64,000 nt of DNA, taken from contig JAZSPC010000052.1 of the NCBI GenBank assembly GCA_045537285.1, positions 1,873-65,872 on the forward strand, written 5' to 3'. Of the stretch, positions 56-63,324 are shown one piece after another. The notes beneath the pieces were generated by a model. The model had not been told where the DNA came from. It saw only the letters and a list, made by a program, of their open reading frames with translations, and ran no database searches. Numbering within the stretch: position 1 is the stretch's first letter; every line of letters starts with the position of its first letter. A program made the position numbers and the translations under genes. The stretch comes from Clostridia bacterium. Its GTDB lineage: Bacteria; Bacillota; Clostridia; TANB77; CAG-508.

Positions 56-70
56 TAATATATTCTTAAA

Positions 71-844
71 TTATTCTTCTACTATTTCTTCGCTGTTTGA
101 AACAACTTCTTCCATAGATTCTTCTTTGTTTTCTTCTGAATCAACAGTTAAATCTATTGCTTCACCTTGTTTTGCTTCTATAACAGCATTAGCTATTACT
201 TGTGCTATTAATTTTACTGAACGAATAGCATCATCATTTCCTGGTATTACATAGTCGATATTTTCTGGGCTACAGTTTGTATCTACTAATCCTACTACTG
301 GAATATTTAATTTATTAGCTTCTTTTATAGCTATTTCTTCTTTTTTAGAATCTACTATGAATATTACTCCTGGTAATTCTTCCATATCTTTGATTCCACC
401 TAAGTTAGTTTCTAATTTAGCCATTTCTTTCTTTAAAAGAATAACTTCTTTTTTAGGTAATACTTCAAAAGTACCATCTTGTTCCATAGCTTCTAATTTT
501 TTAAGTCTTTCAACTCTTGTTCTAATTGTTTTGAAGTTAGTTAACATTCCTCCTAACCATCTTTGATCAATGTAGAACATTCCACAAGTTATTGCTGCTT
601 CTTTCATGCATTCTTGTGCTTGTTTTTTAGTTCCTACAAATAGAACATTTTTTCCTGCTTCAACTTGTTCTCTAACGAATGCATATGCTTCGTCAATTTT
701 CTTTGAAGTCTTTTGTAAATCGATGATGTGGATTCCGTTTCTAGCTTGGAAAATGTACTCAGACATTTTAGGATCCCATCTTCTTGTTTGATGCCCAAAA
801 TGAATATCTGCTTCTAGTAATTGTTTCATTGCAACTACTGCCAT
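71..844 (-). CDS. rpsB: 30S ribosomal protein S2
   Basis: 257 aa. Canonical N-terminus [27 protein letters not shown]. Acidic C-terminal tail of about 30 aa. Confidence 0.97.
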
Positions 845-1019
845 TTTAAATTCCTCCTTTTAGTTTCACTTCCACAAGGTTTACGTTAGGTTACCAACCT
901 AAGATCTTAGGCACTAGGATTAACTGACCTTATGTGTAATTTTTTAATAACCATTAGATTATACCAGAAATCAATTGTAATTGCAATACTTTTTTATATA
1001 TTTTTCTAATTCTTTTACA

Positions 1020-3595: not shown

Positions 3596-4243
3596 CTAGT
3601 TACATCCACAATCATTTTTTGATGAAATAACATTGTTATCTCTATCTACTAAATTGTTTAAATTATTCATATAGAATTTCTTTTGTGCTAATTTATCTTG
3701 AACTCCACGAAGAGCTTCACCAAATCTTTGGAAGTGAACTATTTCTCTTTCTCTTAGGAATTTTAATGGATCTATAACATCTGGATCATCTGCACATAAA
3801 TCTATTAATTTTTCATAAGTTGCTCTTGCTTTTTGTTCAGCAGCTAAATCTTCTTGTAAATCCGCTATTGGATCACCTTTTACAGCTAATACAGCTGCAT
3901 TAAATGGCCAACCAGCAGCAGCCTGAGGATATACTCCATTTCCATGGTCTGTATAATATGCACCTAATCCTGCTCTTTCCATCTCCTCAGGTGATACACC
4001 ATCTGTTAATTGGTGTACTATTGTTCCTACCATTTCTAAGTGAGCAAGTTCCTCTGTACCTATATCATTTAATATAGCTTTTGATTTTTGGTCTGGCATA
4101 CCAAATCTTTGAGATAAATATCTAAGTGATGCTGCAAGTTCGCCATCAGGTCCTCCATATTGAGATATTATAAACTTTGCAAGTCTTGGATTTTTATTTT
4201 TAACATTTATTGGATATTCCAATGTTTTGTGATAATTCCACAT
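3596..4243 (-). CDS. cotJC: Spore coat protein CotJC (manganese catalase family)
   Basis: 215 aa. Motifs PRLAKFIISQYGGPDGELAASLRYLSQRF, EELAHLEMV, EIVHFQRFGEAL. Confidence 0.9.
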   Translation of the reverse strand: MWNYHKTLEYPINVKNKNPRLAKFIISQYGGPDGELAASLRYLSQRFGMPDQKSKAILNDIGTEELAHLEMVGTIVHQLTDGVSPEEMERAGLGAYYTDHGNGVYPQAAAGWPFNAAVLAVKGDPIADLQEDLAAEQKARATYEKLIDLCADDPDVIDPLKFLREREIVHFQRFGEALRGVQDKLAQKKFYMNNLNNLVDRDNNVISSKNDCGCN

Positions 4244-4245
4244 AA

Positions 4246-4518
4246 TTAACAGTCACTTCTCCTTTCCCATGGCCATGGTTCTTCTAGCCATCTCCATTTG
4301 TTACATGGATAGTTTATTGTTAATGGTCCATATACTTTTTGATATTTATCCATTAAATCTTTTAAAATATTTGCATAATGTCTGTGTAAGCATAAAGCTT
4401 TTTCATCTTCTGGATGAGTGTCTAAATAAAGGCCTAATTCTATTATTGAAAATTGATATTCTTTAATCTTACATAACATTTCTTCTTGTCTCATATCATC
4501 ACAATCATAATTATTCAT
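4246..4518 (-). CDS. cotJB: Spore coat protein CotJB
   Basis: 90 aa. YQFSIIELGLYLDTHPEDEKAL motif. Sits between cotJA and cotJC. Confidence 0.85.
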   Translation of the reverse strand: MNNYDCDDMRQEEMLCKIKEYQFSIIELGLYLDTHPEDEKALCLHRHYANILKDLMDKYQKVYGPLTINYPCNKWRWLEEPWPWERRSDC

Positions 4519-4871
4519 TATTTATTACACCCCTCTCCTATTTTATTAGTCATCTTAATAAACTCAATTTCTTCTATTGATTGATTTGGGCAATAAGGAC
4601 TAACTAATTCTGGAAATATAGTTCCTTTCTTTAAACCGACTTCTGGTCTAAAAACTTGATTCATTTGTTGAATTGGAACATAGCTTTGTGCATACATTGG
4701 ATATTCTGGAAAACCGTTATAATCTTCATCATATCCGCAGCTACATGCATCTGTTTCATAGTGGTAATTACTAACATCATAGCAGTTTTCTTCTAAGTCA
4801 CATTTATCATATTCCATAGAAGGACAATTGTTGTAATTTTTGAAACATTTGCTACATTTTCTATAAAACAT
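4518..4871 (-). CDS. cotJA: Spore coat-associated protein CotJA
   Basis: 117 aa. C-terminal YAQSYVPIQ...GLKKGTIFPELVSPY motif. Translationally coupled to cotJB through an overlapping stop and start. Confidence 0.8.
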   Translation of the reverse strand: MFYRKCSKCFKNYNNCPSMEYDKCDLEENCYDVSNYHYETDACSCGYDEDYNGFPEYPMYAQSYVPIQQMNQVFRPEVGLKKGTIFPELVSPYCPNQSIEEIEFIKMTNKIGEGCNK

Positions 4872-9736: not shown

Positions 9737-12700
9737 TTAGCAACCGGTTTTTGGTAATTTTTTTACAATTTCTTTTTCTATAATTATTGTTTCAAAATTA
9801 CTACTATCTCTAACAACATATTCTTCTATATTACCTGATAAATTCGCGTTGTTTACAAGTTTATCATCTTTTTTTACATCATTATCAATTTTTGTATATA
9901 CAATTGGTTTTACTATTGCTTCAAAATCTTTTGAAACTGTTTTATATTCCACTTTTATTTCAGTAATTATTTCTTTATTTTCCAAATTTAGCTCATCAAA
10001 ACTTAAATACTCACTGGTTAAACTATTTACAGTTTTAAATAATCTATAATCATTTTGATTTGTTTTGTAATATATTTCATAATTTATATCTTCGTTATAT
10101 ATTCCTGTTATCATTTTGGTTACTTTACTATCTTCATAAGGAATATATTCTATCCAAGTGAAATCATCTAATTTAGTATTACTTGTGTTTTTAATTTCAA
10201 ATTCGTATTTTATCTCTTCATTTCTTTCTACTGTTTGTTGCCCTCTTATTTCAATGTTTAGGTTTGGAACTACCGCTTCATTTTTTATTTCTAAAACTTT
10301 AACCTCATTATTTTTATCTATATTTACAATAAATTCATTTTTATTTAATATATAATATCGGTTTGTAGCTTTTTCTTTTACTATGTATTTTCCTATTTCT
10401 AAATCTTTTGATATAGCTTTTCCTGATTCATCAGTAATTAAAGTTTCTACTAATTCATTATTAAAATCAAATATTTCAAACTCAACATTTTTTAAACTTT
10501 CTCCTTGTTTAATTTCTAATATTGGGCTATCATTACTGCTCGTTTTTATTATTTGAATCTTACCCCTTATTTTTTCGTTTTCGATTTGTAGTTTTACCAC
10601 TTCATTTGCTTTTATATTTATAGTTATAACTTTTTCATTTAATACATAATTACTATTTGTTTTAACTTCTTTTAAATGATATTTTCCAATCGGTAATCTT
10701 TTACTTATTGCATATCCTTTTTCATTAGTAACCAGCTTATCTACCACTTCATTATTTTTATCTAATATTTCAAATTCCACATTAGGTATTTTTATATTGC
10801 TATCATTTTTATCAGCTTTATATATTTCTACTTGTCCTTTTAATTTTTCATTTTCCACTATAACATTTGTTATTTCATTGTGTTTAACTTCTGCATTAAA
10901 TTCATTTTCTAATAATTCATATCCTTGGTTAGTTTCTATCTCTCGAATTAATATATTTCCAACTCTAATATCCTCAACTATCACGACTCCTTGTTCATTT
11001 GTTTTAGCCTCGTATGTAAATCCGTCTTTATCGGTTATCTTAAACTTAACACCTTCTAATACAATCTCAGGATTATCTTTATCTACTTTTGTTATTTCTA
11101 AACTTCCTTTTTTGTGTTCATTTTTTATAACTAATTCTGTAACCTTTTCATTTTCGACTTGCAATGTATAAATTTCATTATTCATTAGATAATTTGTGTT
11201 AATTCCTAAGTCTACTTCTTTTACTGTATATTCACCTATTAATAACCTTGAAGATGTAGCCTTACCCTTACTATCTGTTACTATTTCGTCTACCACTTTG
11301 TTGTTTATATCTAATATATGAAATTTAACACCTTCAAGTTTTATCTCTTCTTTTTTTGCATCTTGTTTAGTGATTTGTATTTGGCCTTTTTTCTTTTCGT
11401 TTTCTATTACAATATCAGACGTTTTATTCCATTCTACAATAATATCTTTATTTTCACACAAATTGTATTCTTTCTTTGTTACAATTTCTCTTAAAGTATA
11501 TGCACCTGTATTTATATTTTCTATATATGCTTCACCATTTACATCTGTTATTAAATGTGCTATCATTTTTCCATTTGCATCTATTAAATTAAATTCTATT
11601 GCACCTAATGTAATGGTTTTATCATCTTTATCCACTTTTGTAATCTTTAAGTTTCCTTTTTTATGTATGTTTTCAATAACTAGTTCTGTTATCTTTTCAT
11701 CTTCTATTCTTGTTTTATATTCTGTTTCTTCCAATATGTATTCCACATTGTCTCCTAAACTTATTTCTTTAATTGTATATTCTCCAATAGGTAATCTTTT
11801 AGTTATACCTACACCTGCCAAATCAGTTTTAATTTCATCCACAACATTGTTATTACTATCTATTATTTGGAATTCTACACCCTCTAATTTAATTTCATTA
11901 TTTTCTTTATCTTGTTTTGTAATTTGGATTTGCCCTTTTTTCTTTTCATTTTGAATTGTCATTTCTGTTGTTTCATTCCATTTAACCTCTATATTATTAT
12001 CTGTACAAAGATTATAGTTTTCTTTTGTTTTAGTTTCTTTTAATGTATAACTCCCTATATTTATATTATTAATTTGTGCTTCACCATTTATATCTGTAAT
12101 CAAATGTGCAACTTTATTTTTATTTAAATCTATTAAATCAAATTCAATTCCTTCTAGCACCACATTATTTTCATCTTTATCAACTTTTGTTATTTTTAAA
12201 TTTCCTTTTTTATGGGTATTTGTTATAGTTCTACTTACTTCTTTATTGTATTCTGTTTTCATCTCATATACCGTTTCATCTTTTTCATAATTTTCGTTTG
12301 CAGTAAGTTCTCTGATTTTATATGTACCTTGATATATATTTTTAAAAGTAACCACTCCATTTGTATTTGTTTTGCCACTTGTTATATATTCATCATTATT
12401 GTTATACAACCCAAATTCAACATCTTTTATAGGGTTAGAACTTTCTGCATCTTTTTTTACTATCTTTATACTCGATGTGTTTGTAGTCTTATTAAATTCT
12501 GTACTTGATTCATAACTTGCATACGGACTACAAGTTACAGCATAATTTTGCAATGTATTCTTAGGTGCTTGTCCGAAAAATACTGCATTTGTTTTACATT
12601 CCGCTACGACATTAATTTTCCCTGATATATCTTTATCTAATTCTGTTTTGGGTATCATTATCCTAAATTTTTCAGATGGCGAGAATGTATTTTTACTCAC

Positions 12701-13387
12701 TCCTATATTATTTGCTACATAGCTTCCTTCTGGAAAATTTTCTATGCTTTTCACAGTATATTGGCTAATATTTACATCTGCATTTACACTATATTCTTGG
12801 TAATAATAGTTACCATTTTCTATTAAATCTCCTAATTTATTTATGGCTATTACTGGCTCTTTATATTCTGCATTACCTGCTTTTCCTTTTTCTGTTATTT
12901 CATATATTGCATTTATTATTTTTTCACCTCTTACATCAGCTGCTTTATAGAAACTTTTCACATCTCTGCCTAACATAACGCATTTAATTGCATGTTTTGT
13001 TGCAACATATGCATCATCTTCTGTTTCTACACCCAGTTGTTCAATTGTTTTATATGGATATCCGTTTATTACAATGTTGTATAATAATTTATCTGTTAAT
13101 AGTTTATCTGTTGTAACTGTATATGAACCCTCTTCATCAACGCCATTAGCTCCAACTGTTATACAATATGCAGGATACTTTTTCCCATCTTCTTTATATG
13201 AAATATATCCAAATTGAATTTTACGCCATTCTTGTTTTTCTTCGTTATAGTACATAATATGAGTATCTAATTTGTGATCATATATTAAATTTGCTTTTGT
13301 AAGTTCGCTTATGGCATTTACTACTGGCATAAACGCATTCATTATTGTTATTAAAATCGTAAACATTACTATCCATTTTTTTATCAT
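9737..13387 (-). CDS. Large secreted surface adhesin: N-terminal Cys-containing domain, 8 tandem CnaB/SpaA-type domains, C-terminal beta-sandwich and LPKTG
   Basis: 1216 aa. Signal peptide ending in VNA. Eight repeats of the form KKG(N/Q)(L/I)(K/Q)ITK.DKD...LEGVEF.I.D...G....L..G.Y.(L/I)KE. Ends ...KKLPKTGC*. A sortase gene lies immediately upstream. Confidence 0.85.
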   Translation of the reverse strand: MIKKWIVMFTILITIMNAFMPVVNAISELTKANLIYDHKLDTHIMYYNEEKQEWRKIQFGYISYKEDGKKYPAYCITVGANGVDEEGSYTVTTDKLLTDKLLYNIVINGYPYKTIEQLGVETEDDAYVATKHAIKCVMLGRDVKSFYKAADVRGEKIINAIYEITEKGKAGNAEYKEPVIAINKLGDLIENGNYYYQEYSVNADVNISQYTVKSIENFPEGSYVANNIGVSKNTFSPSEKFRIMIPKTELDKDISGKINVVAECKTNAVFFGQAPKNTLQNYAVTCSPYASYESSTEFNKTTNTSSIKIVKKDAESSNPIKDVEFGLYNNNDEYITSGKTNTNGVVTFKNIYQGTYKIRELTANENYEKDETVYEMKTEYNKEVSRTITNTHKKGNLKITKVDKDENNVVLEGIEFDLIDLNKNKVAHLITDINGEAQINNINIGSYTLKETKTKENYNLCTDNNIEVKWNETTEMTIQNEKKKGQIQITKQDKENNEIKLEGVEFQIIDSNNNVVDEIKTDLAGVGITKRLPIGEYTIKEISLGDNVEYILEETEYKTRIEDEKITELVIENIHKKGNLKITKVDKDDKTITLGAIEFNLIDANGKMIAHLITDVNGEAYIENINTGAYTLREIVTKKEYNLCENKDIIVEWNKTSDIVIENEKKKGQIQITKQDAKKEEIKLEGVKFHILDINNKVVDEIVTDSKGKATSSRLLIGEYTVKEVDLGINTNYLMNNEIYTLQVENEKVTELVIKNEHKKGSLEITKVDKDNPEIVLEGVKFKITDKDGFTYEAKTNEQGVVIVEDIRVGNILIREIETNQGYELLENEFNAEVKHNEITNVIVENEKLKGQVEIYKADKNDSNIKIPNVEFEILDKNNEVVDKLVTNEKGYAISKRLPIGKYHLKEVKTNSNYVLNEKVITINIKANEVVKLQIENEKIRGKIQIIKTSSNDSPILEIKQGESLKNVEFEIFDFNNELVETLITDESGKAISKDLEIGKYIVKEKATNRYYILNKNEFIVNIDKNNEVKVLEIKNEAVVPNLNIEIRGQQTVERNEEIKYEFEIKNTSNTKLDDFTWIEYIPYEDSKVTKMITGIYNEDINYEIYYKTNQNDYRLFKTVNSLTSEYLSFDELNLENKEIITEIKVEYKTVSKDFEAIVKPIVYTKIDNDVKKDDKLVNNANLSGNIEEYVVRDSSNFETIIIEKEIVKKLPKTGC
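10274..12475 (-). repeat. Tandem array of 8 CnaB-type domain repeats, including a duplicated A-B two-domain block
   Basis: Domains start at residues 305, 393, 483, 576, 666, 759, 849 and 940. Residues 393-575 and 576-758 are both 183 aa and colinear. The DNA copies have diverged and are not identical. Confidence 0.8.
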
Positions 13388-13400
13388 AAAAATTCCTCCT

Positions 13401-13955
13401 TTATTTTTCTTCTACGGCTTGAACACATAATCTTTGATTTGGTTTATTTGCAATACACGTAATCATAGTTATTCTATTATCTTTTGTTGTTTGCAAATCT
13501 GACCAATCTGTATCATATATAACTTTCTTTTTAGTAACTATATATTTTCTTTCAAAAAACTTTGTTTTATATATTATCTTGTCTCCTTTTTCTAATTCAT
13601 TAAGTCTAGCAAAATACGAAAACTCCGTACCTCTATTATGAGCAGCTAAGCCAATATTTCCTTCATACTTTGCAGTTTCAGGCATATGACCTATGTACTC
13701 CATTAAAATATCTTGTGTGCTACCTTCCTTTACTTTTGCTTTTAACCCTATTTTATCTATTGTTAAAATTCCTAAAATACTTTCATCAATAATTTCTTCG
13801 TTTTCTTCATAAACAATATTTATATAATTCTCATCTGTTTTTACATCTTCTATTTGTGTTAATTCATATTCTTTTTTTGAAGATATAAAGGGTATGCTTA
13901 ATAAAAGTATTGCAATAAAAACAACACCTAAAATATATCTTAATATTTTACGCAT
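13401..13955 (-). CDS. Sortase (small class D/C-like transpeptidase)
   Basis: 184 aa with an N-terminal TM segment. Catalytic His in LAAHNRG, Cys in ITMITC (TLxTC-like), Arg in QRLCVQA. Confidence 0.85.
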   Translation of the reverse strand: MRKILRYILGVVFIAILLLSIPFISSKKEYELTQIEDVKTDENYINIVYEENEEIIDESILGILTIDKIGLKAKVKEGSTQDILMEYIGHMPETAKYEGNIGLAAHNRGTEFSYFARLNELEKGDKIIYKTKFFERKYIVTKKKVIYDTDWSDLQTTKDNRITMITCIANKPNQRLCVQAVEEK

Positions 13956-14689: not shown

Positions 14690-15045
14690 TGGTGGAGATG
14701 AGGAGATTCGAACTCCTGTCCAACAACCTTTCCACATAAACTTCTCCGAGTTCAGTTTGTTATTAAAATTCCCTTATTTTAAGTTAGCAAACAAACTTAT
14801 AAACAAGGTAGTTTCTAAAATACCTACTATTTGTGAAACAACAAATAGCTTCGTTTCCCACTAAGTCGTCGCCTTATCCTATAACGTGGGAATTATTGGT
14901 AAGACGTCGCCGCGACTAGGCAGCGTATGCTAATTCTCTATTATCAGCGTTTATTTTTAATTTCGCTTTTTTATAGTGGCCAAAGCGACCATCCACTACT
15001 CGCTATTTATACTTCTAGGTTGCTGTCGAAACCAAGCACATCCCC
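14690..15045 (-). ncRNA. ssrA: tmRNA (SsrA)
   Basis: 5' end GGGGATGTGCTTGGTTTCGACAG and 3' end GGAGTTCGAATCTCCTCATCTCCACCA (tRNA-Ala-like acceptor and T-arm). The internal tag ORF reads ...GCT GAT AAT AGA GAA TTA GCA TAC GCT GCC TAG, giving (A)DNRELAYAA*. The resume codon is uncertain, and an upstream GCG would give AKLKINADNRELAYAA. Confidence 0.93.
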
Positions 15046-17929: not shown

Positions 17930-17970
17930 CAAAACAAAAAGGAAAATGCAAAATTTACACTTTCCTTTTT
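17930..17970 (-). terminator. Terminator after the pilin-like gene, positioned just past the out-of-frame C-terminal segment
   Basis: Minus strand GGAAAGTG-TAAATTTTG-CATTTTCC followed by TTTTTGTTTT, about 30 nt beyond the TAA at 18001. Confidence 0.7.
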
Positions 17971-18000
17971 ATATAAAATTCTTTATATTTTCATAAAACT

Positions 18001-18210
18001 TTAAATTCCAGATGGGTTCATTACTATTGGTCGAACCCCTAATGTATCCACTTTCCCAATTATAAATGATGAATCACCATAAGTTTGTTTCCATAAACAT
18101 TCGGATGGAAACATACCGCATTTCCTTCCAAATGTAAAAATTTCACCTCCCACACTAGCACTATCTTCAAATAGACGCCTCGAAGCAACCCAGTATCTAT
18201 CGCCGTATAT
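18001..18210 (-). pseudogene. Out-of-frame C-terminal domain of the pilin-like protein (69 codons in the +1 frame)
   Basis: Hand translation gives IYGDRYWVASRRLFEDSASVGGEIFTFGRKCGMFPSECLWKQTYGDSSFIIGKVDTLGVRPIVMNPSGI*. This aligns with the C-terminus of the paralog at 54691 (…NYWVSARN…LGVRPVVINPTGI…). Confidence 0.8.
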
Positions 18211-20413
18211 CTAAATACCCCAAACTCTCTATTTGTGTTCGATCCGCGTCTCCGTTATCGTCACTTTCTTTTACTTTCAAGTCTTCAACTTCAAAATACT
18301 TTTTACTAAATTCTGAAAAAGTGTGATATTTTGCTATATCAATACTTCCCCCCACACTTCTTACTCCTTCATTGTCTGTTGCAGTTACTAAACTTTTACA
18401 ATAATTATTTATTGTTGTTATTGCATTATTATATGACGCTATTGCTATGTCATCAGGGTCTGATGTTTTATATCCATCTTTGTTATAGTCAATATCACCT
18501 TCCTCTATTTCTCCATCTCCATTCAAATCATCTGGTATATTGTCGTTGTCTAAATCTAAATATTTTAATAGGTTTCCTTTTATTTCTTGGTCATCGTATC
18601 CTAATGTTAAACTTCCTATTGCACTTTTGCTTATTATTTCTACTAAGTCAATTCTATCTGTTAATATTATCCAATCTTCTGGCGTTCCGTCCATGTTACT
18701 ATCATATTTTACAGTTTGACCTTCTCTACTTTCTGCTTTTACTGTACAAGTTACGCTATAACTTCCACATGTTGCTGTTATTATTGCTTCACCCTTTGAT
18801 TTTATTACTATATTTACACTTGTTCCTGTTCCCTCAATGGTTGCTACATCTTCATTTGACGTTGTCCAAGTTATTTCTCCGTCTATATTTGTTAGTGAAG
18901 CTGTTAACTCCTCTGTTAATTCTTCTCCTTTTTTTATTGTTTTAGTTGTTTCTGTTTTATCTAGTGTAATTTTTCCTTCTAGCTGAGTTATTTTGCATGT
19001 TGCACTATATTCTCCACATGCTACTGTTATTGTTGCTTCTCCTTTTGATTTTATTACAACATTTACACTTGTTCCCGTTCCTTCCGCTACTGCTACACTT
19101 TCATTTGATGTAGTCCAGGTTATTTCTCCTTCCACATTAATTAATGATGCCGTTAATGTTTCTGTTCCTCCTATTTTTCCATTTGTTATCTCTGTTTTAT
19201 CTAGTTTTATACCATCTATTAAAGCTGTTATTTTCTCTTTTTGTCCACTTGGTGATGTTACTTCAAATACATATTCTCCTGCTTCTGTTGTTGCATAACT
19301 TGTTGTTACATAATTTCTAGCAAACCAATCTATATTTTGTGTGCTTCCATCTGGTTTTGTTACTACTACTGGATGTGTTCTTGTATATGCTTGTCCTGCT
19401 ACATATATTAATGCATGTTCTCTTGTAAAGAATTTTATTGATTCAACTCCTACATCTATATTATAATTTAATTGTGCTCGATATTCTTCTAATGTTGTTT
19501 TTCCTGTTATTTCAGTTAATATTGTATCAAATGTTTTCTCATTGTTATACCAGCCTTCTACTGTACTCTTTATCTCTTCTTCTGTTTTTCCTACTAGATC
19601 TGGTAATAACTTTTTAGAATATACTACTTTGGCACCATCGCCATGTACTACATACAAACTTCCAATCCATGCACTTTCTGTAAGAGATTGAATCATAACA
19701 AGCTTAACATATGAAGCTGCTGATGGATATCCATGTTTTTCTAGTACCTTTGCATCTCCTTGTTCTGTTATAAAGTCTTCATATGCCATATCATCAACGT
19801 TAGATTTTATTAATTCATCATATACAACGTCTGGTCCTACTCCTAATAAACTTCCACCTAATGTTAGTATTTGCTCGGCTGTCATACCTGGTAAATATTC
19901 ATATTCTAAATATTCATATCCAAACTTAGTACTATCATATTCTGGTAAACCTACTAAATCTATCCTTAAATTTATGTTATGTCCATTGTTTGTTTTAGAT
20001 ACTGTATAACTTACATCTATATCTTCTGCATCTGTGCTTCCTTCCTCTGCCTTCTCTACTGTAATATTCAAATTTTCATCTACTACTATCTTGTATTTTC
20101 CTTCTTCTGTTATTACTGCATTTCCTTCTATTGTACTTCCTTCAAAATGCTCATTTATTAATCTTAATAACTCTGCTTGGTTTAATGTTCTTCCATTCAT
20201 GAAATATTCTGTTTGTGCTTTCATTTTTACTAATTCTGCATCTTCTTTTAGTTGTGCCATTTTATGATTTTCAGTTGCAGTTATTGCATATGTTATTATT
20301 CCATCTCCTGTTATTTCTTGTATCGCCACAACTGCTAGTATTAATAGCAGTACTACTGTTATTATTAATGCTATTAATGTGATACCTTTTGGTGTTTTAC
20401 TTTTTCCTTTCAT
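18197..20413 (-). CDS. Large surface protein with a prepilin-like N-terminus and two Big_2 (Ig-like) domains; 3' end frameshifted
   Basis: 738 aa in frame. The N-terminus MKGKSKTPKG|ITLIALIITVVLLLILA resembles a class III (type IV pilin) signal but has Ala at +5. Tandem ITWTTSNE..V....GTGTSVN.VIKSKGEA.IT..CG modules. Asp-rich DxDxDG-like segment. Confidence 0.75.
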   Translation of the reverse strand: MKGKSKTPKGITLIALIITVVLLLILAVVAIQEITGDGIITYAITATENHKMAQLKEDAELVKMKAQTEYFMNGRTLNQAELLRLINEHFEGSTIEGNAVITEEGKYKIVVDENLNITVEKAEEGSTDAEDIDVSYTVSKTNNGHNINLRIDLVGLPEYDSTKFGYEYLEYEYLPGMTAEQILTLGGSLLGVGPDVVYDELIKSNVDDMAYEDFITEQGDAKVLEKHGYPSAASYVKLVMIQSLTESAWIGSLYVVHGDGAKVVYSKKLLPDLVGKTEEEIKSTVEGWYNNEKTFDTILTEITGKTTLEEYRAQLNYNIDVGVESIKFFTREHALIYVAGQAYTRTHPVVVTKPDGSTQNIDWFARNYVTTSYATTEAGEYVFEVTSPSGQKEKITALIDGIKLDKTEITNGKIGGTETLTASLINVEGEITWTTSNESVAVAEGTGTSVNVVIKSKGEATITVACGEYSATCKITQLEGKITLDKTETTKTIKKGEELTEELTASLTNIDGEITWTTSNEDVATIEGTGTSVNIVIKSKGEAIITATCGSYSVTCTVKAESREGQTVKYDSNMDGTPEDWIILTDRIDLVEIISKSAIGSLTLGYDDQEIKGNLLKYLDLDNDNIPDDLNGDGEIEEGDIDYNKDGYKTSDPDDIAIASYNNAITTINNYCKSLVTATDNEGVRSVGGSIDIAKYHTFSEFSKKYFEVEDLKVKESDDNGDADRTQIESLGYLDIRR
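18734..19210 (-). repeat. Two tandem Big_2-type Ig-like domain repeats
   Basis: Residues 402-480 and 481-560 are colinear (…LTASL.N..GEITWTTSNE.VA..EGTGTSVN.VIKSKGEA.IT..CG.YS.TC…). Confidence 0.8.
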
Positions 20414-20507: not shown

Positions 20508-20538
20508 CAAAAAAGACAGGTAAATATTTTTACCTATC
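20508..20538 (-). terminator. Intrinsic terminator between the leader ORF and the pilin-like gene
   Basis: Minus strand GATAGGTAAA-AATA-TTTACCTGTC (10-bp stem with one G-U pair) followed by TTTTTTG. Confidence 0.75.
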
Positions 20539-20591
20539 TTTTATTCGTATATTTAATAAAGCATATTTTATGCTTGCTTCTTTTTTATTTA

Positions 20592-20654
20592 TTAAATTAC
20601 CTTGTGTGTGTGTGTGTGTGTGTGTACTCTCTCAACGGTTTCAAGGTTTTGCAT
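20592..20654 (-). CDS. 20-codon leader ORF, MQNLETVERVHTHTHTHKVI
   Basis: AAAGGAG RBS 9 nt upstream of the ATG. The His-Thr run is encoded by the (CA)n tract. Not in the ORF track because it is below the length cut-off. Confidence 0.45.
   Translation of the reverse strand: MQNLETVERVHTHTHTHKVI
20603..20625 (-). repeat. Dinucleotide microsatellite: (TG)11T on the + strand, (AC)11A on the coding strand
   Basis: 23 nt of uninterrupted tgtgtg..., counted directly. Confidence 0.98.
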
Positions 20655-20697
20655 CTTTTATTTCTCCTTTGTTTCTTCTTTTATTTTTATATTTCAA

Positions 20698-20727
20698 ATT
20701 ATATATTTAATAAGTTCGTTTTGTCAA
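20698..20727 (-). promoter_or_regulatory. Near-consensus sigma-A promoter driving the leader ORF, and probably the pilin-like gene
   Basis: Minus strand reads TTGACA - 18 nt - TATAAT. Confidence 0.6.
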
Positions 20728-35096: not shown

Positions 35097-36119
35097 CTAT
35101 TGTATAAACATTGCATCTCCAAAACTAAAAAATCTATACTTTTCTTTTACAGCTTCTTCGTAAGCACTCATTATGTAGTCTTTTCCTGCTAACGCTGATA
35201 CTAGCATTAATAGTGTTGATTCTGGTAAATGGAAGTTTGTTATAAGTGCATCAACACATTTAAATTTATATCCTGGATAAATAAATATATTAGTATCTCC
35301 TTCAACTTCTCTTACTAGTCCTTGTTCATTAGCTACACTTTCTAGCACTCTTGTAGAGGTTGTCCCAACACTTATAATTCTTCCACCATTTTTCTTTGTT
35401 TTGTTTATCTTTTCTACATCTTCTGGTTTTATATAAAAATGTTCTGTATGCATATGATGATCTTCTATTTTCTCTACTTTTACTGGTCTAAAAGTTCCTA
35501 TTCCAACATGAAGTGTTACATTTGCAATTTCCACACCTTTTTCTTTTATCTTTTCTAAAAGTTCATCTGTAAAATGTAGTCCTGCTGTTGGTGCAGCAGC
35601 TGACCCTTTATATTTTGCATATACAGTTTGATATCTGTCTTTTTCTTTTAATTCTTCATGTATATATGGTGGTAATGGCATTAATCCTATTTGGTCTAAT
35701 ATCTCATTAAATATACCGTTATATGTAAATTTAACTTTTCTTGTCCCACCTTCCATTAATTCTAATATTTCTGCTGTTAATAATCCATCTCCAAAGATTA
35801 CTTTTGTTCCTACATGAAGTTTATTTCCTGGTCTTACAATACTTTCCCAGATATCACCTTCAATATTATTTAAAAGTAAAAACTCAACATTTGCTCCTGT
35901 TTCTTTTTTTCCATAAATTCTAGCTGGTAACACCTTTGTATTATTTCTTACTAAACAATCTCCTGGTTTTAAATAATCTAATATATCTTTAAATATTTTG
36001 TGTTCTATTGTTTTATTTTCTCTATCTAATACCAAAAGTCTTGATTCATCTCTTTTTGCAATTGGTACTTGTGCTATTAATTCTTCTGGTAAATTATAGT
36101 AAAATTCTTTTAGGTCCAT
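35097..36119 (-). CDS. queA: S-adenosylmethionine:tRNA ribosyltransferase-isomerase
   Basis: 340 aa. Motifs [38 protein letters not shown]. Confidence 0.96.
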
Positions 36120-36184
36120 TTCTATTTTCCTTTCTATTTTTACCTAAATATTATACTAAATTTTTAAGTATTATACAAGTATAA

Positions 36185-54690: not shown

Positions 54691-56829
54691 TTATTCTTCT
54701 ACATATTGTATCCCTGTTGGATTAATTACTACTGGACGTACACCCAAAGTTATTGAGTTCCACCCGGAAGCATGATAAGTACCACCTGAATATCTTATAT
54801 TATGACTATATAAATATCCACTCCATCCATAATTTGTTCCTATTCTTAGATAAGTATCACAATCTAAATTTGAATATGTCCCATTTTCTTCGAAAGTTTC
54901 ATATCCTGTTTCCAAAATATTCCTAGCAGATACCCAATAATTTACTCCTACATTTAATATACCAAGTTCCGTCAATTTATTAACATCTACCTTATATATT
55001 GATTCATCACTTGAAGCTTTTAAAGTTATATTTGTAAATCTTTTAAAAACTCCATTATATCCTACCGAGCTATGTTCTCCTGCTGTATCAGTGCTCTCCC
55101 CTATACTTCTAACACCTTCATTATCTGATGCTGTTATTATATTTTTGCAAAAATTATTAATTGTTGTTATAGCATTATTATAGGAAGTTACTGCTACTTC
55201 ATTATACTCTCCTGTAATTCCATCTCCATCCAAGTCTTCTGGCTCTGTTATTGTTGGATCTGTATGTCCTAATGTTAATCCATTACCATTTTTATCGTAC
55301 ATTACATTTGAACTTACTATTTCTAATTTTCCTTCCTCTGATGTTAATACTACCCAATCTTCTAAGGTTCCATCTTTATTACTATCATATTTCACGATTT
55401 CCCCTTCTTTTGCTATTTTATTGTATGTGTCACCGCATTTACTACATGTATATATTCTCTTTTCAGCTTTTATTGTAATATTATAACTATGTCCTAACAT
55501 ACTTCCATATTCAAATGTACTTGTCCCTTTCGCTCCACAATTTACGCAACTGTAATAATATACTGACGCCGATGTACATGTAGCTGCTGTTTTTAAGTAT
55601 TGTGATGATGTATCTTGTTTTGTATAAGTATGTTCTAAGGTAGAAACAGTCTCTGTTTTAGTTGCTCCACAATTTGTACACGTGTATGTTTTCACACCTG
55701 TTGTTGTACATGTAGCTGCTGTTGTTACTGTTCCTTCATCAAAATCATGTCCTAATACACTTCCATATTCAAATGTACTTGTTCCTTTTGCTCCGCAATC
55801 TACGCAACTGTAATAATATACTGCCGTTGATGTACATGTGGCACCTGTTTTTAAATATTGTGATGATGTATCTTGTTTTGTATATCTATGTTCTAATGCA
55901 GAAACAGTTTCTGTTTTAGTTGCAGTACATCCATTATAAGTACATGCATATTCTATCTTTCCTTCTTCTGTACATGTTGCTGCTTTTGTTGTTTCACCAC
56001 TATCCCATATATGTGTAATATGAGTTTCTAATGTTATTGTTGTAATCTCTGAATAATTTGGAGTACTTGCATTATCGTAAGTTCTTGCTTCTATATTATA
56101 CAGACCATTTTCTGATATAGTAAACAATACCCTGCTATCTTCATTATGATTAATTTCTTCTTCACTTGATTCGTTTTCAACTGTATAGCTAGTCCCTCCT
56201 ACACCAGACCAGCTATCTTCTCCCGGTACAATTTCTACTTCTACCGCAGTTATATATACTCCTTCATCATTCCTTTCTCCTGAAATTATATTTATTTGTG
56301 GTCTGGAAGGTGGAATATTATCTGTTAATGTTCCACCTGGTTTTATATAATAATAGCTTTTTTCTTTTAAACTTATTCCTTCTACATAATAAATGGTATG
56401 AGTATTTTCATTAATAACATAAACATCTTCTAGGTTATATGGTATATCTTCCGAACCATTTTCCACATAATCTTTCCATGCTTCAAATCCGTCTTCTCCA
56501 TAGTTTAATGATATTCCATCCAAAGCTTCTAAGTCCAAAATATAGTAAACAGAATTATCTATTGGATTTCTTGTAAATGTTATTTTTGTCTCATCAAGTT
56601 GAAGTGGTTCATTAGAAGACCTGTCTCTTAATACTGGTAATCCCCCATATCTTAAATAGTAATTTGACACTTTATCTTCTAGCAATCCTATATCATTTAC
56701 CATTTTATTAAATTCATTAATTTGAAATCTATCTAATGATATATATACTACGGTTGAAGATATTATTAACATTAATCCTATTGTTATAATTAGTGATATT
56801 AGTGTTATTCCATTTTTTTTCTTTATCAT
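54691..56829 (-). CDS. Large surface protein with a prepilin-like N-terminus, Cys-rich tandem modules and the conserved C-terminal module shared with 18001..20413
   Basis: 712 aa. The N-terminus MIKKKNG|ITLISLIITIGLMLI is pilin-like with Ser at +5. Repeated ATCT…Y.C..CG…TETVS.LEH modules. C-terminal GEIVKYDSNKDGTLEDWVVL…SYNNAITTINNFCK…NEGVRS…YWVSARN…LGVRPVVINPTGI. Confidence 0.75.
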   Translation of the reverse strand: MIKKKNGITLISLIITIGLMLIISSTVVYISLDRFQINEFNKMVNDIGLLEDKVSNYYLRYGGLPVLRDRSSNEPLQLDETKITFTRNPIDNSVYYILDLEALDGISLNYGEDGFEAWKDYVENGSEDIPYNLEDVYVINENTHTIYYVEGISLKEKSYYYIKPGGTLTDNIPPSRPQINIISGERNDEGVYITAVEVEIVPGEDSWSGVGGTSYTVENESSEEEINHNEDSRVLFTISENGLYNIEARTYDNASTPNYSEITTITLETHITHIWDSGETTKAATCTEEGKIEYACTYNGCTATKTETVSALEHRYTKQDTSSQYLKTGATCTSTAVYYYSCVDCGAKGTSTFEYGSVLGHDFDEGTVTTAATCTTTGVKTYTCTNCGATKTETVSTLEHTYTKQDTSSQYLKTAATCTSASVYYYSCVNCGAKGTSTFEYGSMLGHSYNITIKAEKRIYTCSKCGDTYNKIAKEGEIVKYDSNKDGTLEDWVVLTSEEGKLEIVSSNVMYDKNGNGLTLGHTDPTITEPEDLDGDGITGEYNEVAVTSYNNAITTINNFCKNIITASDNEGVRSIGESTDTAGEHSSVGYNGVFKRFTNITLKASSDESIYKVDVNKLTELGILNVGVNYWVSARNILETGYETFEENGTYSNLDCDTYLRIGTNYGWSGYLYSHNIRYSGGTYHASGWNSITLGVRPVVINPTGIQYVEE
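55420..55983 (-). repeat. Tandem Cys-rich modules (86-aa / 258-bp period)
   Basis: TKTETVSALEHRYTKQDTSSQYLKTGATCTSTAVYYYSCVDCGAKGTSTFEYGSVLGH is repeated as TKTETVSTLEHTYTKQDTSSQYLKTAATCTSASVYYYSCVNCGAKGTSTFEYGSMLGH, with partial copies on either side. Confidence 0.85.
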
Positions 56830-56870
56830 TTGCTTATCTCCTTACAATTTACTATAATTTAATTTTATAA

Positions 56871-57512
56871 TTAATTATAAGTTTTGTCAATTATTTTACA
56901 TATTTTTCTATATGTGTAGTATTTTCTGTTTTCTTTAATTGTAATACTCCATAAAGCTATAACCAAGACTAATATTGCTATATTTTTATATATAATTATT
57001 AATATGCTTGCTAACATTGTTAATAGTATAACTAATGGATTTGTTATTAAGTTTATGTATTCATTTGATTTTCTATTTCCGAAAAAAACTTTTAACAAAT
57101 TTTTTAATATTCTTCCACCATCTAACGGATATATTGGTATTAAATTAAATATAAATATTAAAAAATTAGAATAAATTATATTGCTATCCATATTAAATAT
57201 TACTCCAAATATAGCAATTAATAAATTAACTAATGGTCCAACTAATGCTATAATTATTTTTTTAACAGCTATTATATTAGATTTTAAAATCTTTTTATTG
57301 TAATCTTCTACTTTGGTATGAAAATCTATCGAAAATCCTAATGGCATTATTCTTAAAGTATCTGGTTTAAAACCCAAAAGCACTCCACATACTAAATGTG
57401 CAAGCTCATGTAAAAGAGCAAATAACATAGCAAGTGCATAAATTTCTATTTGATTGGTTAGTATAAACAATATTAAAATCAAAAAAATATTTAAATTTAA
57501 TCTTATCTTCAC
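56871..57512 (-). CDS. spoIVFB: M50 site-2 protease, SpoIVFB-like
   Basis: 213 aa, polytopic. HELAHLVCG (HExxH) in a TM helix and a second motif PIYPLDGGRIL. Confidence 0.7.
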   Translation of the reverse strand: MKIRLNLNIFLILILFILTNQIEIYALAMLFALLHELAHLVCGVLLGFKPDTLRIMPLGFSIDFHTKVEDYNKKILKSNIIAVKKIIIALVGPLVNLLIAIFGVIFNMDSNIIYSNFLIFIFNLIPIYPLDGGRILKNLLKVFFGNRKSNEYINLITNPLVILLTMLASILIIIYKNIAILVLVIALWSITIKENRKYYTYRKICKIIDKTYN

Positions 57513-57531: not shown

Positions 57532-58470
57532 TTAGAATTGTATTACTAATTTAGGATTAATATATCTATTTTTGTATCGAATTTCTAAATGAAGGTGTGG
57601 GCCTGTTGATGTTCCTGTTGACCCAACAGTTGCTATTGTTTGTCCTATTTTTATTTTATCTCCTACTTTTACTTTTAATTTTTGGCAATGTGCATAAACT
57701 GTCATTACATCACCATTTACAATTTTTATAAACTTACCATATTCTTTATTTTCTTCTGCAACTTTAACAGTACCTTCCATTGCAGCTTTTATATATGTCC
57801 CCAAATTTGCTGCAATATCTATGCCTTTATGATCAGTTGTCATTCCATCTATTATAGCTTCTCTATCTCCAAATTCTGATGTAATAGTTCCATTTAATGG
57901 CTTTTGGAATTGGCATAATTGGGATAATTTCTCCACATCTAATTCCATTTGAGTTTTAGCTGTTTCTTCTACTTTCTGTTCTTCAACATCTTCCAAATTT
58001 TTATTATCTGATGTTTCATTTTCTTTATTTTCATTATCTTCTTTTATTACATTTTCTGTTTGAATAGAATTATTTTCTATTATTACAGTATTTTGTACCG
58101 CACTATTTTCTAATATATTTTGAACTATATTATTTTTTTCGATAGCTTGATTTGAATCTATTGGTGAAGATATAAATAGCATAAAATTATTATAAAGTTC
58201 TCCAAAATTTATATCATGATTTAATATTTCACTTGTGTTTTTAATTATATCTGCCGAAAAAACATAATTAGTTGTAGATATTAAATAAAAAACTGTATAT
58301 ATTAACAAACAAATTATAATTTGTATTATCATTTTTTTAAATAATTTATAATCCTTTTTCTCATTTACATTTACTCGTGTTGCGTTGGTTTTATAATTAT
58401 TATTGTTTCTTCTTTGTGATATTTCTATTGCTCGTCTTATTTTTTCTTCATCTGATAGTATTCTTTCCAT
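57532..58470 (-). CDS. M23/LytM-domain protein (occupies the SpoIVFA position)
   Basis: Start at ATG 58470. One TM segment, an Asn/Glu-rich linker, then HKGIDIAANLGT and GPHLHLEI. Confidence 0.8.
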   Translation of the reverse strand: MERILSDEEKIRRAIEISQRRNNNNYKTNATRVNVNEKKDYKLFKKMIIQIIICLLIYTVFYLISTTNYVFSADIIKNTSEILNHDINFGELYNNFMLFISSPIDSNQAIEKNNIVQNILENSAVQNTVIIENNSIQTENVIKEDNENKENETSDNKNLEDVEEQKVEETAKTQMELDVEKLSQLCQFQKPLNGTITSEFGDREAIIDGMTTDHKGIDIAANLGTYIKAAMEGTVKVAEENKEYGKFIKIVNGDVMTVYAHCQKLKVKVGDKIKIGQTIATVGSTGTSTGPHLHLEIRYKNRYINPKLVIQF

Positions 58471-58538
58471 AAAAAACACCTCTTCTTTATCAATAGTTTT
58501 GTAAACTATATTCTAAAAAAGAGGTTTTATTCCATAAT

Positions 58539-62361: not shown

Positions 62362-63222
62362 TTATGCTGTTTTTAATTCTAAGCGTAGCTTATCACTAAT
62401 CATTGCGATAAATTCACTGTTTGTTGGTTTTCCTTTTGCTGCCGAAATTGTATATCCGAAGATGTTTTCAACAGTCTCTGATTGACCACGTCCCCAAGCA
62501 ACTTCTATTGCATGTCTTATTGCACGTTCAACTCTACTTGGTGTCGTATTATATTTCATTGCTATCTCTGGATATAATTGTTTAGTTATTTGGTTAATAA
62601 TATCTATATTATTAACTACCATCATTATGGCCTCTCTTAAATATTGATATCCTTTAATATGTGCTGGTACACCAACTTCATGGATAACATTAGTAACTAA
62701 TGCTTCCAGATTCTCTTGATTTTTTTTCTTTTCTGGCGAAATCTCTATGTAAGGTGCTTTAATTTCTCTTGCTATATAGCTATTTGTGTTGTTATTTATA
62801 TTATAATTATTTATATTACTATTTAAAAATTGTGGTTGTTGTCTGTATTTTCTTATTTCTTTTATTCGTTGTAGTAGTGTTATTATATCGAATGGTTTTA
62901 TTGCGTAATATTCTGCTCCCAATTCTAATGCTCTTTGAGTTATTTTATCTTGTCCTACTGCTGATAACATTATACAAAGTGGATTCTTTTTCATTTTAGC
63001 AGCATTAATTCTTTCTAAAACACCTATCCCATCTAAATGTGGCATTATTACGTCTAATAAAACTACTTCTGGCTCGGTGCTTGTTATCATCTCAACTGCT
63101 TCTTTTCCATCTCTTGCAATTGCTATTATCTCAAACTCATTATCATCCTCGATATAACCAGTTAATGTCTTAGCAAATTCTGGATTGTCGTCTGCGATTA
63201 AAATTGTAATTTTGTCGTTCAC
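62362..63222 (-). CDS. spo0A: Sporulation master regulator Spo0A
   Basis: Start at GTG 63222 behind AGGAGGA. Receiver domain [10 protein letters not shown]…DVIMPHLDG…SA. Asn-rich linker. C-terminal domain [19 protein letters not shown] and [15 protein letters not shown]. Confidence 0.95.
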
Positions 63223-63324
63223 TTTTTCTCCTCCTAAAATAAAAATTGTAAATATTTTACATTTTTGTATTATAATATGTTTTAAAATATAATGCAATAG
63301 TTTTTTGGAAATTTTTTCAAGTTA

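Follow-up and report, generated by a model that had tools for sequence, protein, structure and literature searches.

In Streptococcus sanguinis, two type IV pilins are modular: PilB carries a von Willebrand factor A (vWA) module and PilC carries a lectin module (PMC8179133; PMC9934059). Here, we analyzed two genes that appear to follow the same plan, gene 1 (18001..20413) and gene 2 (54691..56829). Both lie on the minus strand of a 64,000-nucleotide (nt) stretch of a contig from a Clostridia bacterium (JAZSPC010000052.1); the whole stretch is called the window below. As in the S. sanguinis pilins, a predicted class III signal is followed by a small pilin module and then by at least one graft that is not specific to pili. 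The grafts are two Big_2 domains in gene 1 and an immunoglobulin (Ig)-like domain, Cys-rich repeats, and a C-terminal module in gene 2. The host is likewise a monoderm, and an adhesive or binding role is predicted. Unlike the S. sanguinis pilins, the proteins of the window have Ala or Ser instead of Glu at position +5, so their heads fall below the IPR012902/PF07963 threshold used in the survey of modular pilins (PMC8179133), and an InterPro-based census would have missed them. Their genes are also numerous and scattered outside the pil locus, and the grafted C-terminal domain belongs to no known family. Finally, for the window proteins, incorporation into pili would be a prediction from sequence. 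The explanation that we favor, and consider probable, is that both genes encode prepilin-type modular proteins that are processed by, and associated with, a type IVa pilus system in which this lineage has lost Glu5.

A pilin-type N terminus without Glu5 on a protein larger than the major pilin is also a feature of the GspK- and PilX-type minor (pseudo)pilins of the tip. In those systems all other subunits keep Glu5, but here the short pilins encoded in the pilus clusters of relatives also lack it, and one minor pilin has Asp5. Also unlike GspK, neither window protein has a detectable T2SSK-type domain (no Pfam match to the GspK alpha-domain at an E value of up to 1). Archaeal pilins, archaellins, and bindosome proteins are similar in that they have a prepilin-like signal for which Glu5 is not required; such signals are found on many diverse surface proteins whose genes lie away from the assembly genes (PMC3047682). 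However, the proteins described here are bacterial, and the machinery of their relatives consists of PilMNO, PilB, PilT, PilC, and a PilD with an A24 N-terminal domain, not of a FlaK/PibD-type enzyme.

A Tad-like pilus cluster and the protein "pilin 938" have been described for TANB77, also a group of uncultured low-GC gut Clostridia; these pilin-like proteins have one N-terminal transmembrane (TM) segment, and one is 621 amino acids (aa) long (PMC11680825). By that description, the TANB77 system is set apart by its Tad/Cpa machinery and its clustered genes, and the main text has no description of type IVa clusters or of a Glu5-less head family. TANB77 has also been tied to immunotherapy response via a pilin-like protein. 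Within the known class of modular type IV pilins, three elements would be new here: modular pilins that lack Glu5 and are part of a type IVa system likewise lacking it, their C-terminal domain, and a leader controlled by a repeat.

Prepilin-type heads and the pilus clusters of relatives

A previous sequence-only reading of the window had described two open reading frames (ORFs) with a common pilin-like head and a common C-terminal module of about 240 aa, and both were found at the positions given above. When gene 2 was compared to the read-through translation of gene 1 by BLASTP, the C-terminal modules aligned with 33% identity over 297 columns (E = 1e-36), and at the N terminus KGITLI(A/S)LIIT alone aligned. 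A six-frame regular-expression scan of the window found the head K/N-G-ITLI(A/S)LIIT on just these two ORFs. Both leaders are short and hydrophilic and end in Gly (MIKKKN-G in gene 2 and MKGKSKTPK-G in gene 1), and about 24 hydrophobic residues follow the predicted cleavage site. As in prepilins, the heads conserve Gly (−1), Thr (+2), and Leu (+3), and the residue at +5 is, as previously noted, not Glu (Ser in gene 2, Ala in gene 1). In gene 2, the leader MIKKKNG (residues 1 to 7; 56809..56829, minus strand) would place the prepilin peptidase site behind Gly7, in register with KKG/FTLIE of solved pilins (the slash marks the cleavage site); the hydrophobic alpha1-N segment, ITLISLIITIGLMLIISSTVVYISL, with Ser at +5, follows at 56734..56808 (minus strand), as assigned from the sequence and the profile alignment.

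To describe the heads, we used two groups: the head-A family, defined as relatives of the first ~255 residues of gene 2 (153 proteins among 5.8 billion), and class B, the heads of gene 1 type. Profiles of each were searched against all 177,635 PDB sequences. With the head-A profile (88 sequences), 6 of the 10 matches were type IV filament subunits, including PilA-N (E = 0.003, residues 2 to 62), GspG (residues 9 to 69), PilA, MshA, and PilE1; the GspG-like head-A motif NDIxLLEDKVSNYYLKYGxLP pairs with GspG alpha1-C (NDIELLEDKVSNYYLKYGELP versus SDLVALEGALDMYKLDNSRYP). With the class-B profile (29 heads, including that of gene 1), pilins were 8 of the 10 matches (PilA-N, E = 2e-4; MshA, 3e-3; PilA, 0.025), and KKGITLiAL was aligned with KKGFTLIEL. 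Ser or Ala stands opposite Glu5 in all of these alignments. Both profiles match solved type IV pilins or pseudopilins in register, which bears out the earlier identification of pilin-type N termini. Glu was found at +5 in none of 166 heads, 58 of them in the first loci plus the window and 108 in metagenome loci; 164 of the heads lie beyond the window's two, in 1.7 Mb.

An AlphaFold model of gene 2 residues 1 to 275, built from the 88-sequence alignment, had a predicted local distance difference test (pLDDT) value of 87. In type IV pilins, some 20 to 25 mainly hydrophobic residues behind the cleavage site begin a helix of about 53 residues; correspondingly, the model has an unbroken helix from residue 6 to residue 61 (pLDDT about 90), followed by a small alpha/beta domain of short strands and one helix (residues 95 to 159) and then by the Ig-like domain. 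The head-A domain, made of alpha1-C and the small alpha/beta domain (residues 33 to 170; 56320..56733, minus strand; pLDDT about 90), is kept throughout the 153-protein family, and a pilin fold of the head, with alpha1-C packed against an antiparallel beta-sheet, is plausible on this model. We conclude that the N terminus, as predicted from these alignments, is a divergent, lineage-specific class III (prepilin) signal. A text search of the literature for the head motif found no papers. Phage origin was rejected as a candidate: in a tblastn search the gene 1 head had no match in 50,697 phage records.

The pilus genes themselves were found in relatives. A head-seeded scan of metagenomes gave 80 loci, with 26 to 32% G+C and mostly from human gut, and 12 of these contained all or part of one conserved pil cluster. 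Its order is a PilM/N fusion, PilO, a 150-aa TM protein, one to three pilins, PilD, two minor pilins, PilB, PilT, and PilC. We called the cluster complete in L134 (6076-16656) and also in L069, L084, L091, L101, L107, L108, L121, and L136 (loci are identified by L numbers), all low-GC gut contigs. Pfam matches to the cluster proteins were strong for A24_N_bact (5e-31), T2SSE (8e-100), and T2SSF (1e-25), and PilN was matched at 2e-5. The short pilins (132 to 155 aa; KGITLIALVITIIVLLILAGVSI) start with M(K)NxKG/ITLIALVITIIVLLILAGVSI and have Ala at +5. One of the minor pilins has Ser at +5 (G/ITLISLTIYV) and the other has Asp (G/ITGID, G/YTGVD), which is the only acidic +5 residue in the clusters.

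By hhalign (probability, 98.9%; E = 1.5e-17), the class-B head profile aligned with a cluster pilin over 65 residues, from the leader through alpha1-N to alpha1-C, and the head of gene 1 is, by this match, apparently of the major-pilin type. The head of gene 2 appears to resemble the Ser +5 minor pilin in the hydrophobic segment only, to whose 25 residues the match was limited. Two of the cluster-bearing contigs share conserved genes with the window: in L091, queA is 82% identical in DNA sequence to window positions 35104-36155, and in L111, where the end of PilC lies near rpsB, rpsB is 81% identical to window positions 70-866. These identities indicate that the cluster-bearing contigs come from close relatives. 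The earlier statement that no pilus machinery lies nearby thus holds for the window but not for the lineage, in which complete clusters exist and both a peptidase (PilD) and assembly genes (PilB, PilC) are present.

The PilD homologues (L134, 10539-11351, and seven other loci) match the A24 N-terminal zinc-finger domain strongly. Two Asp residues, in the motifs GID.E and D...LK within membrane segments, are invariant in all eight aligned homologues. The M50 peptidase encoded next to gene 2 was also considered as the head-processing enzyme and was set aside because genuine PilD homologues adjoin the cluster pilins.

Glu at +5 is frequent yet not obligatory in type IV pilins, and in canonical systems the capping subunit alone is without it (PMC10191384). 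The sequence-only reading had taken the missing Glu5 as the mark of a GspK-like tip cap. This step is not borne out: because the short, presumably major, cluster pilins have Ala at +5 too, the absence of Glu5 is a trait of the whole lineage or system and no marker of a tip subunit. Glu5 is treated as near-universal and as critical for assembly, and a Glu5-free system, if it assembles, would test models of subunit docking. It would, in addition, connect the filament chemistry of bacteria with that of archaea.

The mechanism we propose is as follows. The basic leader ending in Gly and the hydrophobic stretch behind it form a class III signal with Ala or Ser at +5, as the homology of the heads shows. 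Sec would insert the protein with the leader in the cytoplasm, and the divergent PilD, whose gene adjoins those of same-headed pilins in relatives, would cut behind the Gly. The alpha1 helix could then dock into a pilus built by PilB, PilC, and PilMNO, or it could hold the protein in the membrane. In either case, swappable outer modules (Ig-like, Big_2, Cys-rich spacers, and the C-terminal domain) would be shown to the gut. Most likely, then, the proteins serve in display, either associated with pili or held by their pilin anchors; display at the tip, as inferred in the sequence-only reading, is conceivable. A broader proposal, which we make only tentatively, is that this type IVa system has lost Glu5 in nearly all of its subunits and that dozens of modular surface proteins in each genome are exported and anchored by the pilin N terminus, used as a general device in the archaeal manner. 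Subsets of these proteins would be switched by (AC)n repeats in a shared leader ORF through frame fusion or ribosome-dependent terminator disruption.

Filament, membrane, and septum

Several results weigh against the favored explanation. Both proteins score below the Pfam N_methyl cut-off (11.6 and 13.2 bits versus 21.2); the cluster pilins of relatives score 20.3 to 20.4 bits. An NCBIfam search gave no pilin-type match for either protein, and searches of Pfam, NCBIfam, and PDB with the whole proteins and with their N- and C-terminal parts separately returned mainly Big_2 and sub-threshold N_methyl. Foldseek with the N-terminal model of gene 2 found FN3, PKD, and Y_Y_Y only, with no pilin in the top 50, and was dominated by the Ig-like domain. 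For the catalytic domain of A24, Pfam gave no match in the PilD homologues at E ≤ 0.01, and Glu5 is held to be important for subunit docking (PMC10191384). Gene 1, being frameshifted, may be dead. Reading of the window ORFs of at least 100 aa revealed no recognizable pil, com, or tad genes, and tblastn with the Pil proteins of a relative found no match in the window. Scans for T2SSE, T2SSF, and A24 motifs found no pilus genes within 10 kb of 54 related genome loci; a secretion ATPase was likewise absent within this distance, and the heads were scattered among housekeeping genes. Finally, pilin heads are abundant. Besides the seeded gene, there are 16 class-B heads in about 1 Mb of flanking DNA, or about 1 per 60 kb, and the window has 2 pilin heads in 64 kb. 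This density exceeds the plausible capacity of pilus tips and favors anchoring in the membrane for many of the proteins.

This last point leads to the alternative that survives best, although we find it rather doubtful: the heads would be pilin-like signal-anchors, processed by PilD or not, and the proteins would stay in the cytoplasmic membrane and never enter a filament. The abundance of the heads fits this, as do the location of the genes outside pil operons and the large size of the proteins, which reach about 1,130 aa. There is also an archaeal precedent in the bindosome sugar-binding proteins, which have class III signal peptides (PMC3047682). However, the homology between the gene 1 head and the cluster pilins is not limited to the membrane segment but extends through alpha1-C, which is packed within filaments, and modular pilins of like size do enter pili (PMC8179133).

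The second alternative arises from the surroundings of gene 2. As the sequence-only reading had it, gene 2 lies between spoIVFB and rpsF. Upstream are genes for a SpoIVFA-like M23 peptidase (57532..58479, minus strand; Pfam Peptidase_M23, E = 6e-31) and a SpoIVFB-like M50 metallopeptidase of 213 aa (56871..57512, minus strand; Pfam Peptidase_M50, E = 1e-14), the latter ending 41 nt before gene 2; downstream is rpsF-ssb. Head-A relatives were found at the 54 genome loci, all in metagenome-assembled genomes of uncultured gut Clostridia from human (Hadza), rabbit, rumen, mouse, and chicken, and including Clostridium sp. CAG:575, CAG:389, and Candidatus Scatovivens, which is assigned to TANB77 family CAG-508 (PMC13106387). 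The organism of the window probably belongs to TANB77 or close to it. Among the 51 loci with enough upstream DNA, the head-A gene is directly behind the M50 gene of an M23-M50 pair in 28, even where the M50 protein is just 33 to 45% identical to that of the window; the arrangement is the same in L002-L004 and in the window. At 10 other loci, the head-A gene is directly behind sepF-divIVA. Head-A genes are thus repeatedly found next to genes for the septum and for sporulation.

The head-A family could therefore work with the M23-M50 pair at the sporulation or division septum, where it would assist, regulate, or be cut by the intramembrane protease, and its likeness to pilins would be ancestral only. 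Most members are just 250 to 270 aa long and have no adhesin-like modules, which suits such a role. Moreover, substrates of site-2 proteases have their N terminus inside and a single TM segment, the topology predicted for head-A. We nevertheless consider this unlikely. A promoter-like site, TTGACA-17-TAAAAT, lies 33 nt 5′ of the gene 2 ATG and overlaps the end of the M50 gene (56862..56890, minus strand; 11 of 12 positions, by consensus match only). The cytoplasmic tail is 6 residues long, and cleavage would release nothing. Members of the family gain variable outward modules, which suggests an extracellular role, and the gene order could simply be inherited.

That the prepilin likeness is due to chance or convergence, the N termini being ordinary Sec signal peptides or signal-anchors, would agree with the low scores in the N_methyl and NCBIfam models and with the absence of Glu5. 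This is highly improbable given that the profile searches of PDB gave almost only pilins, and in register, that hhalign connected the heads to pilins within pil clusters at E = 1.5e-17, and that Gly −1, Thr +2, and Leu +3 are kept. Flp-type pilins carry a G/xxxxEY motif, which is absent from these heads. That counts against the last alternative, in which the Tad-like pilus cluster of TANB77, and not the type IVa system, would handle the proteins as its substrates. A CpaB-TadZ-CpaE-TadA-TadBC cluster, reported as conserved in TANB77 genomes, does include seven genes for pilin-like proteins (PMC11680825), and the Ca. Scatovivens locus (L046) has a head-A relative and belongs to TANB77 family CAG-508, but the homology found is to pilins located between PilO and PilD in PilB/PilT/PilC clusters, and we regard this alternative as extremely improbable.

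Outer modules and the C-terminal domain family

Returning to the prepilin-type modular proteins, the grafts differ between the two genes, as previously described, with two Big_2 stretches in gene 1 and Cys-rich repeats in gene 2. The ORF of gene 2 (54691..56829, minus strand) is uninterrupted and encodes a modular pilin-like protein of 712 aa. After the head comes an Ig/FN3-like beta-sandwich (residues about 171 to 272; 56014..56319, minus strand), with strands between residues 178 and 269 in the AlphaFold model, Foldseek matches to FN3, PKD, and Y_Y_Y, and only a weak OmpL47-type match in NCBIfam. Most head-A proteins, at 250 to 270 aa, consist of the head and the Ig-like domain; gene 2 and L006, its closest orthologue at 86% identity, are longer and include the C-terminal module. 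In P0117, a syntenic orthologue, this head is combined with another C-terminal domain, indicating that outer modules are swapped on a fixed carrier. Comparison of the C-terminal module with the C-terminal domain of P0117 by hhalign was weak (probability, 38%), and we do not claim homology.

The Cys-rich repeats, as read from the sequence, occupy residues 273 to 470 (55420..56013, minus strand). Two repeat types alternate, one of about 35 aa and one of about 45 aa, and each has CxxC-type cysteines and ends with a His; there is no sign of recent tandem DNA duplication, and the only Pfam match was a weak one to DUF7129. Most of the 2,654 database matches of gene 2 are due to these repeats. The repeat xATCTxxGxxxYxCxxCGxxxTExIxALGH and its 45-aa variant are shared by thousands of surface proteins of ~1,000 aa that are not otherwise related (P0003-P0120). 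They may be small metal-binding spacer modules.

The C-terminal module of gene 2 (residues 471 to 712; 54694..55419, minus strand) contains a DLDGDG insert, SYNNAITTINNFC, VRSIG, YWVSAR, and GVRPVVINPTGI. The main frame of gene 1 (18197..20413, minus strand; 738 aa, ending at TAG) encodes the class-B head MKGKSKTPKG/ITLIALIITVV with Ala at +5, a variable region, the two Big_2 stretches (Pfam E = 4e-8), and the first three-quarters of the module. The remainder, YWVASRR...LGVRPIVMNPSGI followed by a stop (also given as YWVASRR...GVRPIVMNPSGI), is in another frame of 64 codons (18001..18196, minus strand). The reading frame shifts at a point from about 18196 to 18215, outside any homopolymer run, and the shift is real in this assembly. 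The best public run for checking it matched no more than 5% of sampled words, and the frameshift is either a mutation or an assembly error.

A survey of how widely the module occurs had been proposed earlier. At word-index sensitivity the module had 11 relatives; a profile search of 1.84 billion representatives gave 927 with E values of 1e-3 or lower, 466 of which had 1e-10 or lower. The module nearly always comes with such a head: among the best 149 representatives, 79 had a complete GITLIAL head (Ala at +5 in 74 of these 79), and many of the headless members were truncated gene calls. Invariant or near-invariant positions are G6, W22, Y80-N81, N88, R104-S105-G107, D139, D145, W162, A164-S165-R166, and R228-P229. 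The Asp-rich stretch is a variable insert resembling a calcium loop (DxDGDG) and is echoed by weak matches to EF-hand, dockerin, and calmodulin. No Pfam family was common to the 29 diverse members scanned, and the module had no match among PDB sequences. The AlphaFold model made from a 10-sequence alignment was poor (pLDDT 53), and Foldseek found nothing below E = 0.9; thus, the structural comparison that had been suggested yielded Ig and FN3 matches for the N-terminal part of gene 2 but none for this module. The order of motifs, YWxASR...GVRPVV, recalls what we take to be the pattern of C-type-lectin-like, FGE, or DUF1566-type families, a comparison for which the Pfam, PDB sequence, and Foldseek searches gave no support. 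The module, of about 215 to 240 aa, is a large unannotated domain family. With the heads below the Pfam and NCBIfam thresholds, a large family of probable surface proteins and this 927-cluster domain are effectively invisible to annotation. The hosts are abundant uncultured gut bacteria, and variable, phase-switched, pilin-anchored proteins would be candidates for contact with the host, phages, or glycans.

Some members of the domain family have other architectures. In P0127, P0129, and P0250, the same module follows a different N terminus, MSRTKTLYLLLITVAVLVMSIAYTAITN..., which looks like a TasA/camelysin-type signal; this suggests that the module is shuffled between export routes. P0249 (1,200 aa) has three matched module stretches and P0270 (1,930 aa) has nine, so the module can be tandemly repeated.

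A repeat-bearing leader and the surroundings of gene 1

In Neisseria, the gene for the phase-variable pilus-associated adhesin PilC has a poly-G tract in its signal-peptide coding region. The DNA upstream of gene 1 is similar in that a short 5′ repeat could frameshift a pilus-associated surface protein on or off. A sigma-70-type promoter-like sequence, TTGACA-18-TATAAT, matches the consensus at 12 of 12 positions (20698..20727, minus strand). Downstream of it, and preceded by a Shine-Dalgarno sequence, is a leader ORF, MQNLETVERV(HT)n..., which as assembled has 20 codons plus a stop (20592..20654, minus strand) and which is kept in other genomes. Within this ORF is an (AC)11 repeat (20604..20625, minus strand). 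A terminator-like hairpin with a 14-bp stem, an AAUA loop, and a U tract (20511..20542, minus strand) lies between the leader ORF and gene 1, whose own ribosome-binding site and ATG are 3′ of the hairpin. The folding z-score of the leader was −3.8. Unlike the tract in Neisseria pilC, the repeat is a dinucleotide, (AC)n, that encodes (His-Thr)n in a conserved leader ORF, and in some copies, including that of gene 1, the hairpin parts the leader ORF from the gene, which suggests an attenuation-type switch.

Such repeats are rare and are concentrated at pilin-headed genes. In 1.8 Mb (the window and all loci), there were nine dinucleotide repeats of at least seven units, of which eight were less than 400 nt upstream of a pilin-headed gene and on the same strand, in five genomes: window 20511-20727 (minus strand); L012 8956, 11060, and 13737; L013 9935; L035 19052; L039 14774; and L072 2015. 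Seven of the eight lie inside homologous leader ORFs, M(K/Q)N..T.E.V(HT)n; the exception, in L039, is (AG)18, encoding (Arg-Glu)n. No (AC)n-type repeat was found at gene 2.

The repeat would act in one of two ways, making at least part of the family phase variable. In L012 and L013 there is no alternative start, and frame simulation showed that with n = 10 or 13 the leader ATG runs into the pilin gene, giving MKNVVTIEAVHTHTHTHGNLIKEKINVFNNK-G/ITLVSL..., whereas with n = 11, as assembled, a stop follows after 20 codons. There the repeat would set the start codon in or out of frame, which by the reading frames is predicted to be phase variation of the usual translational kind. The hairpin contains the end of the long frame in the window and in L072, about 60 nt beyond the stops of the two other frames; in the window, the long frame (n = 10 or 13) stops at 20530-20532, in the 5′ arm. 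Before gene 1, the repeat would thus decide whether a ribosome enters the terminator hairpin, and we infer a ribosome-dependent attenuation switch for gene 1 and for the gene in L072. With n = 11, gene 1 would be off as assembled. Phase variation is typical of exposed surface structures under selection and so fits the display reading. The repeat and leader ORF together would form a compact regulatory cassette.

Gene 1 is flanked by recG and efp, both of which were seen where the sequence-only reading had placed them, and another terminator-like hairpin lies downstream of it (17934..17972, minus strand). In relatives, the interval next to efp/recG contains two to four tandem pilin-headed genes (L106 and L110, 10016-14300; L036, 8115-11000), and it appears to be a variable island for this family.

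The window as a whole has 27.7% G+C and contains spo0A-like, CotJA, and CotJC-like manganese catalase genes (3596-4871 and 62362-63297); the host is a low-GC Clostridia-type organism of a small-genome gut lineage that has probably kept the capacity to sporulate. Anchoring of the two pilin-headed proteins by sortase (LPXTG) was tried and rejected because they end in ...GVRPVVINPTGIQYVEE and ...NPSGI, without a sorting motif and without a hydrophobic tail. The window does contain a sortase gene (184 aa) beside a gene for a surface protein of 1,216 aa that combines a thioester domain with eight repeats of the SpaA type (9737-13955, minus strand), a genuine sortase substrate, from which it follows that the host also exports a large adhesin by the classical sortase route. 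A transfer-messenger RNA (tmRNA) gene with the tag peptide ADNRELAYAA lies nearby, at 14690-15045 (minus strand).

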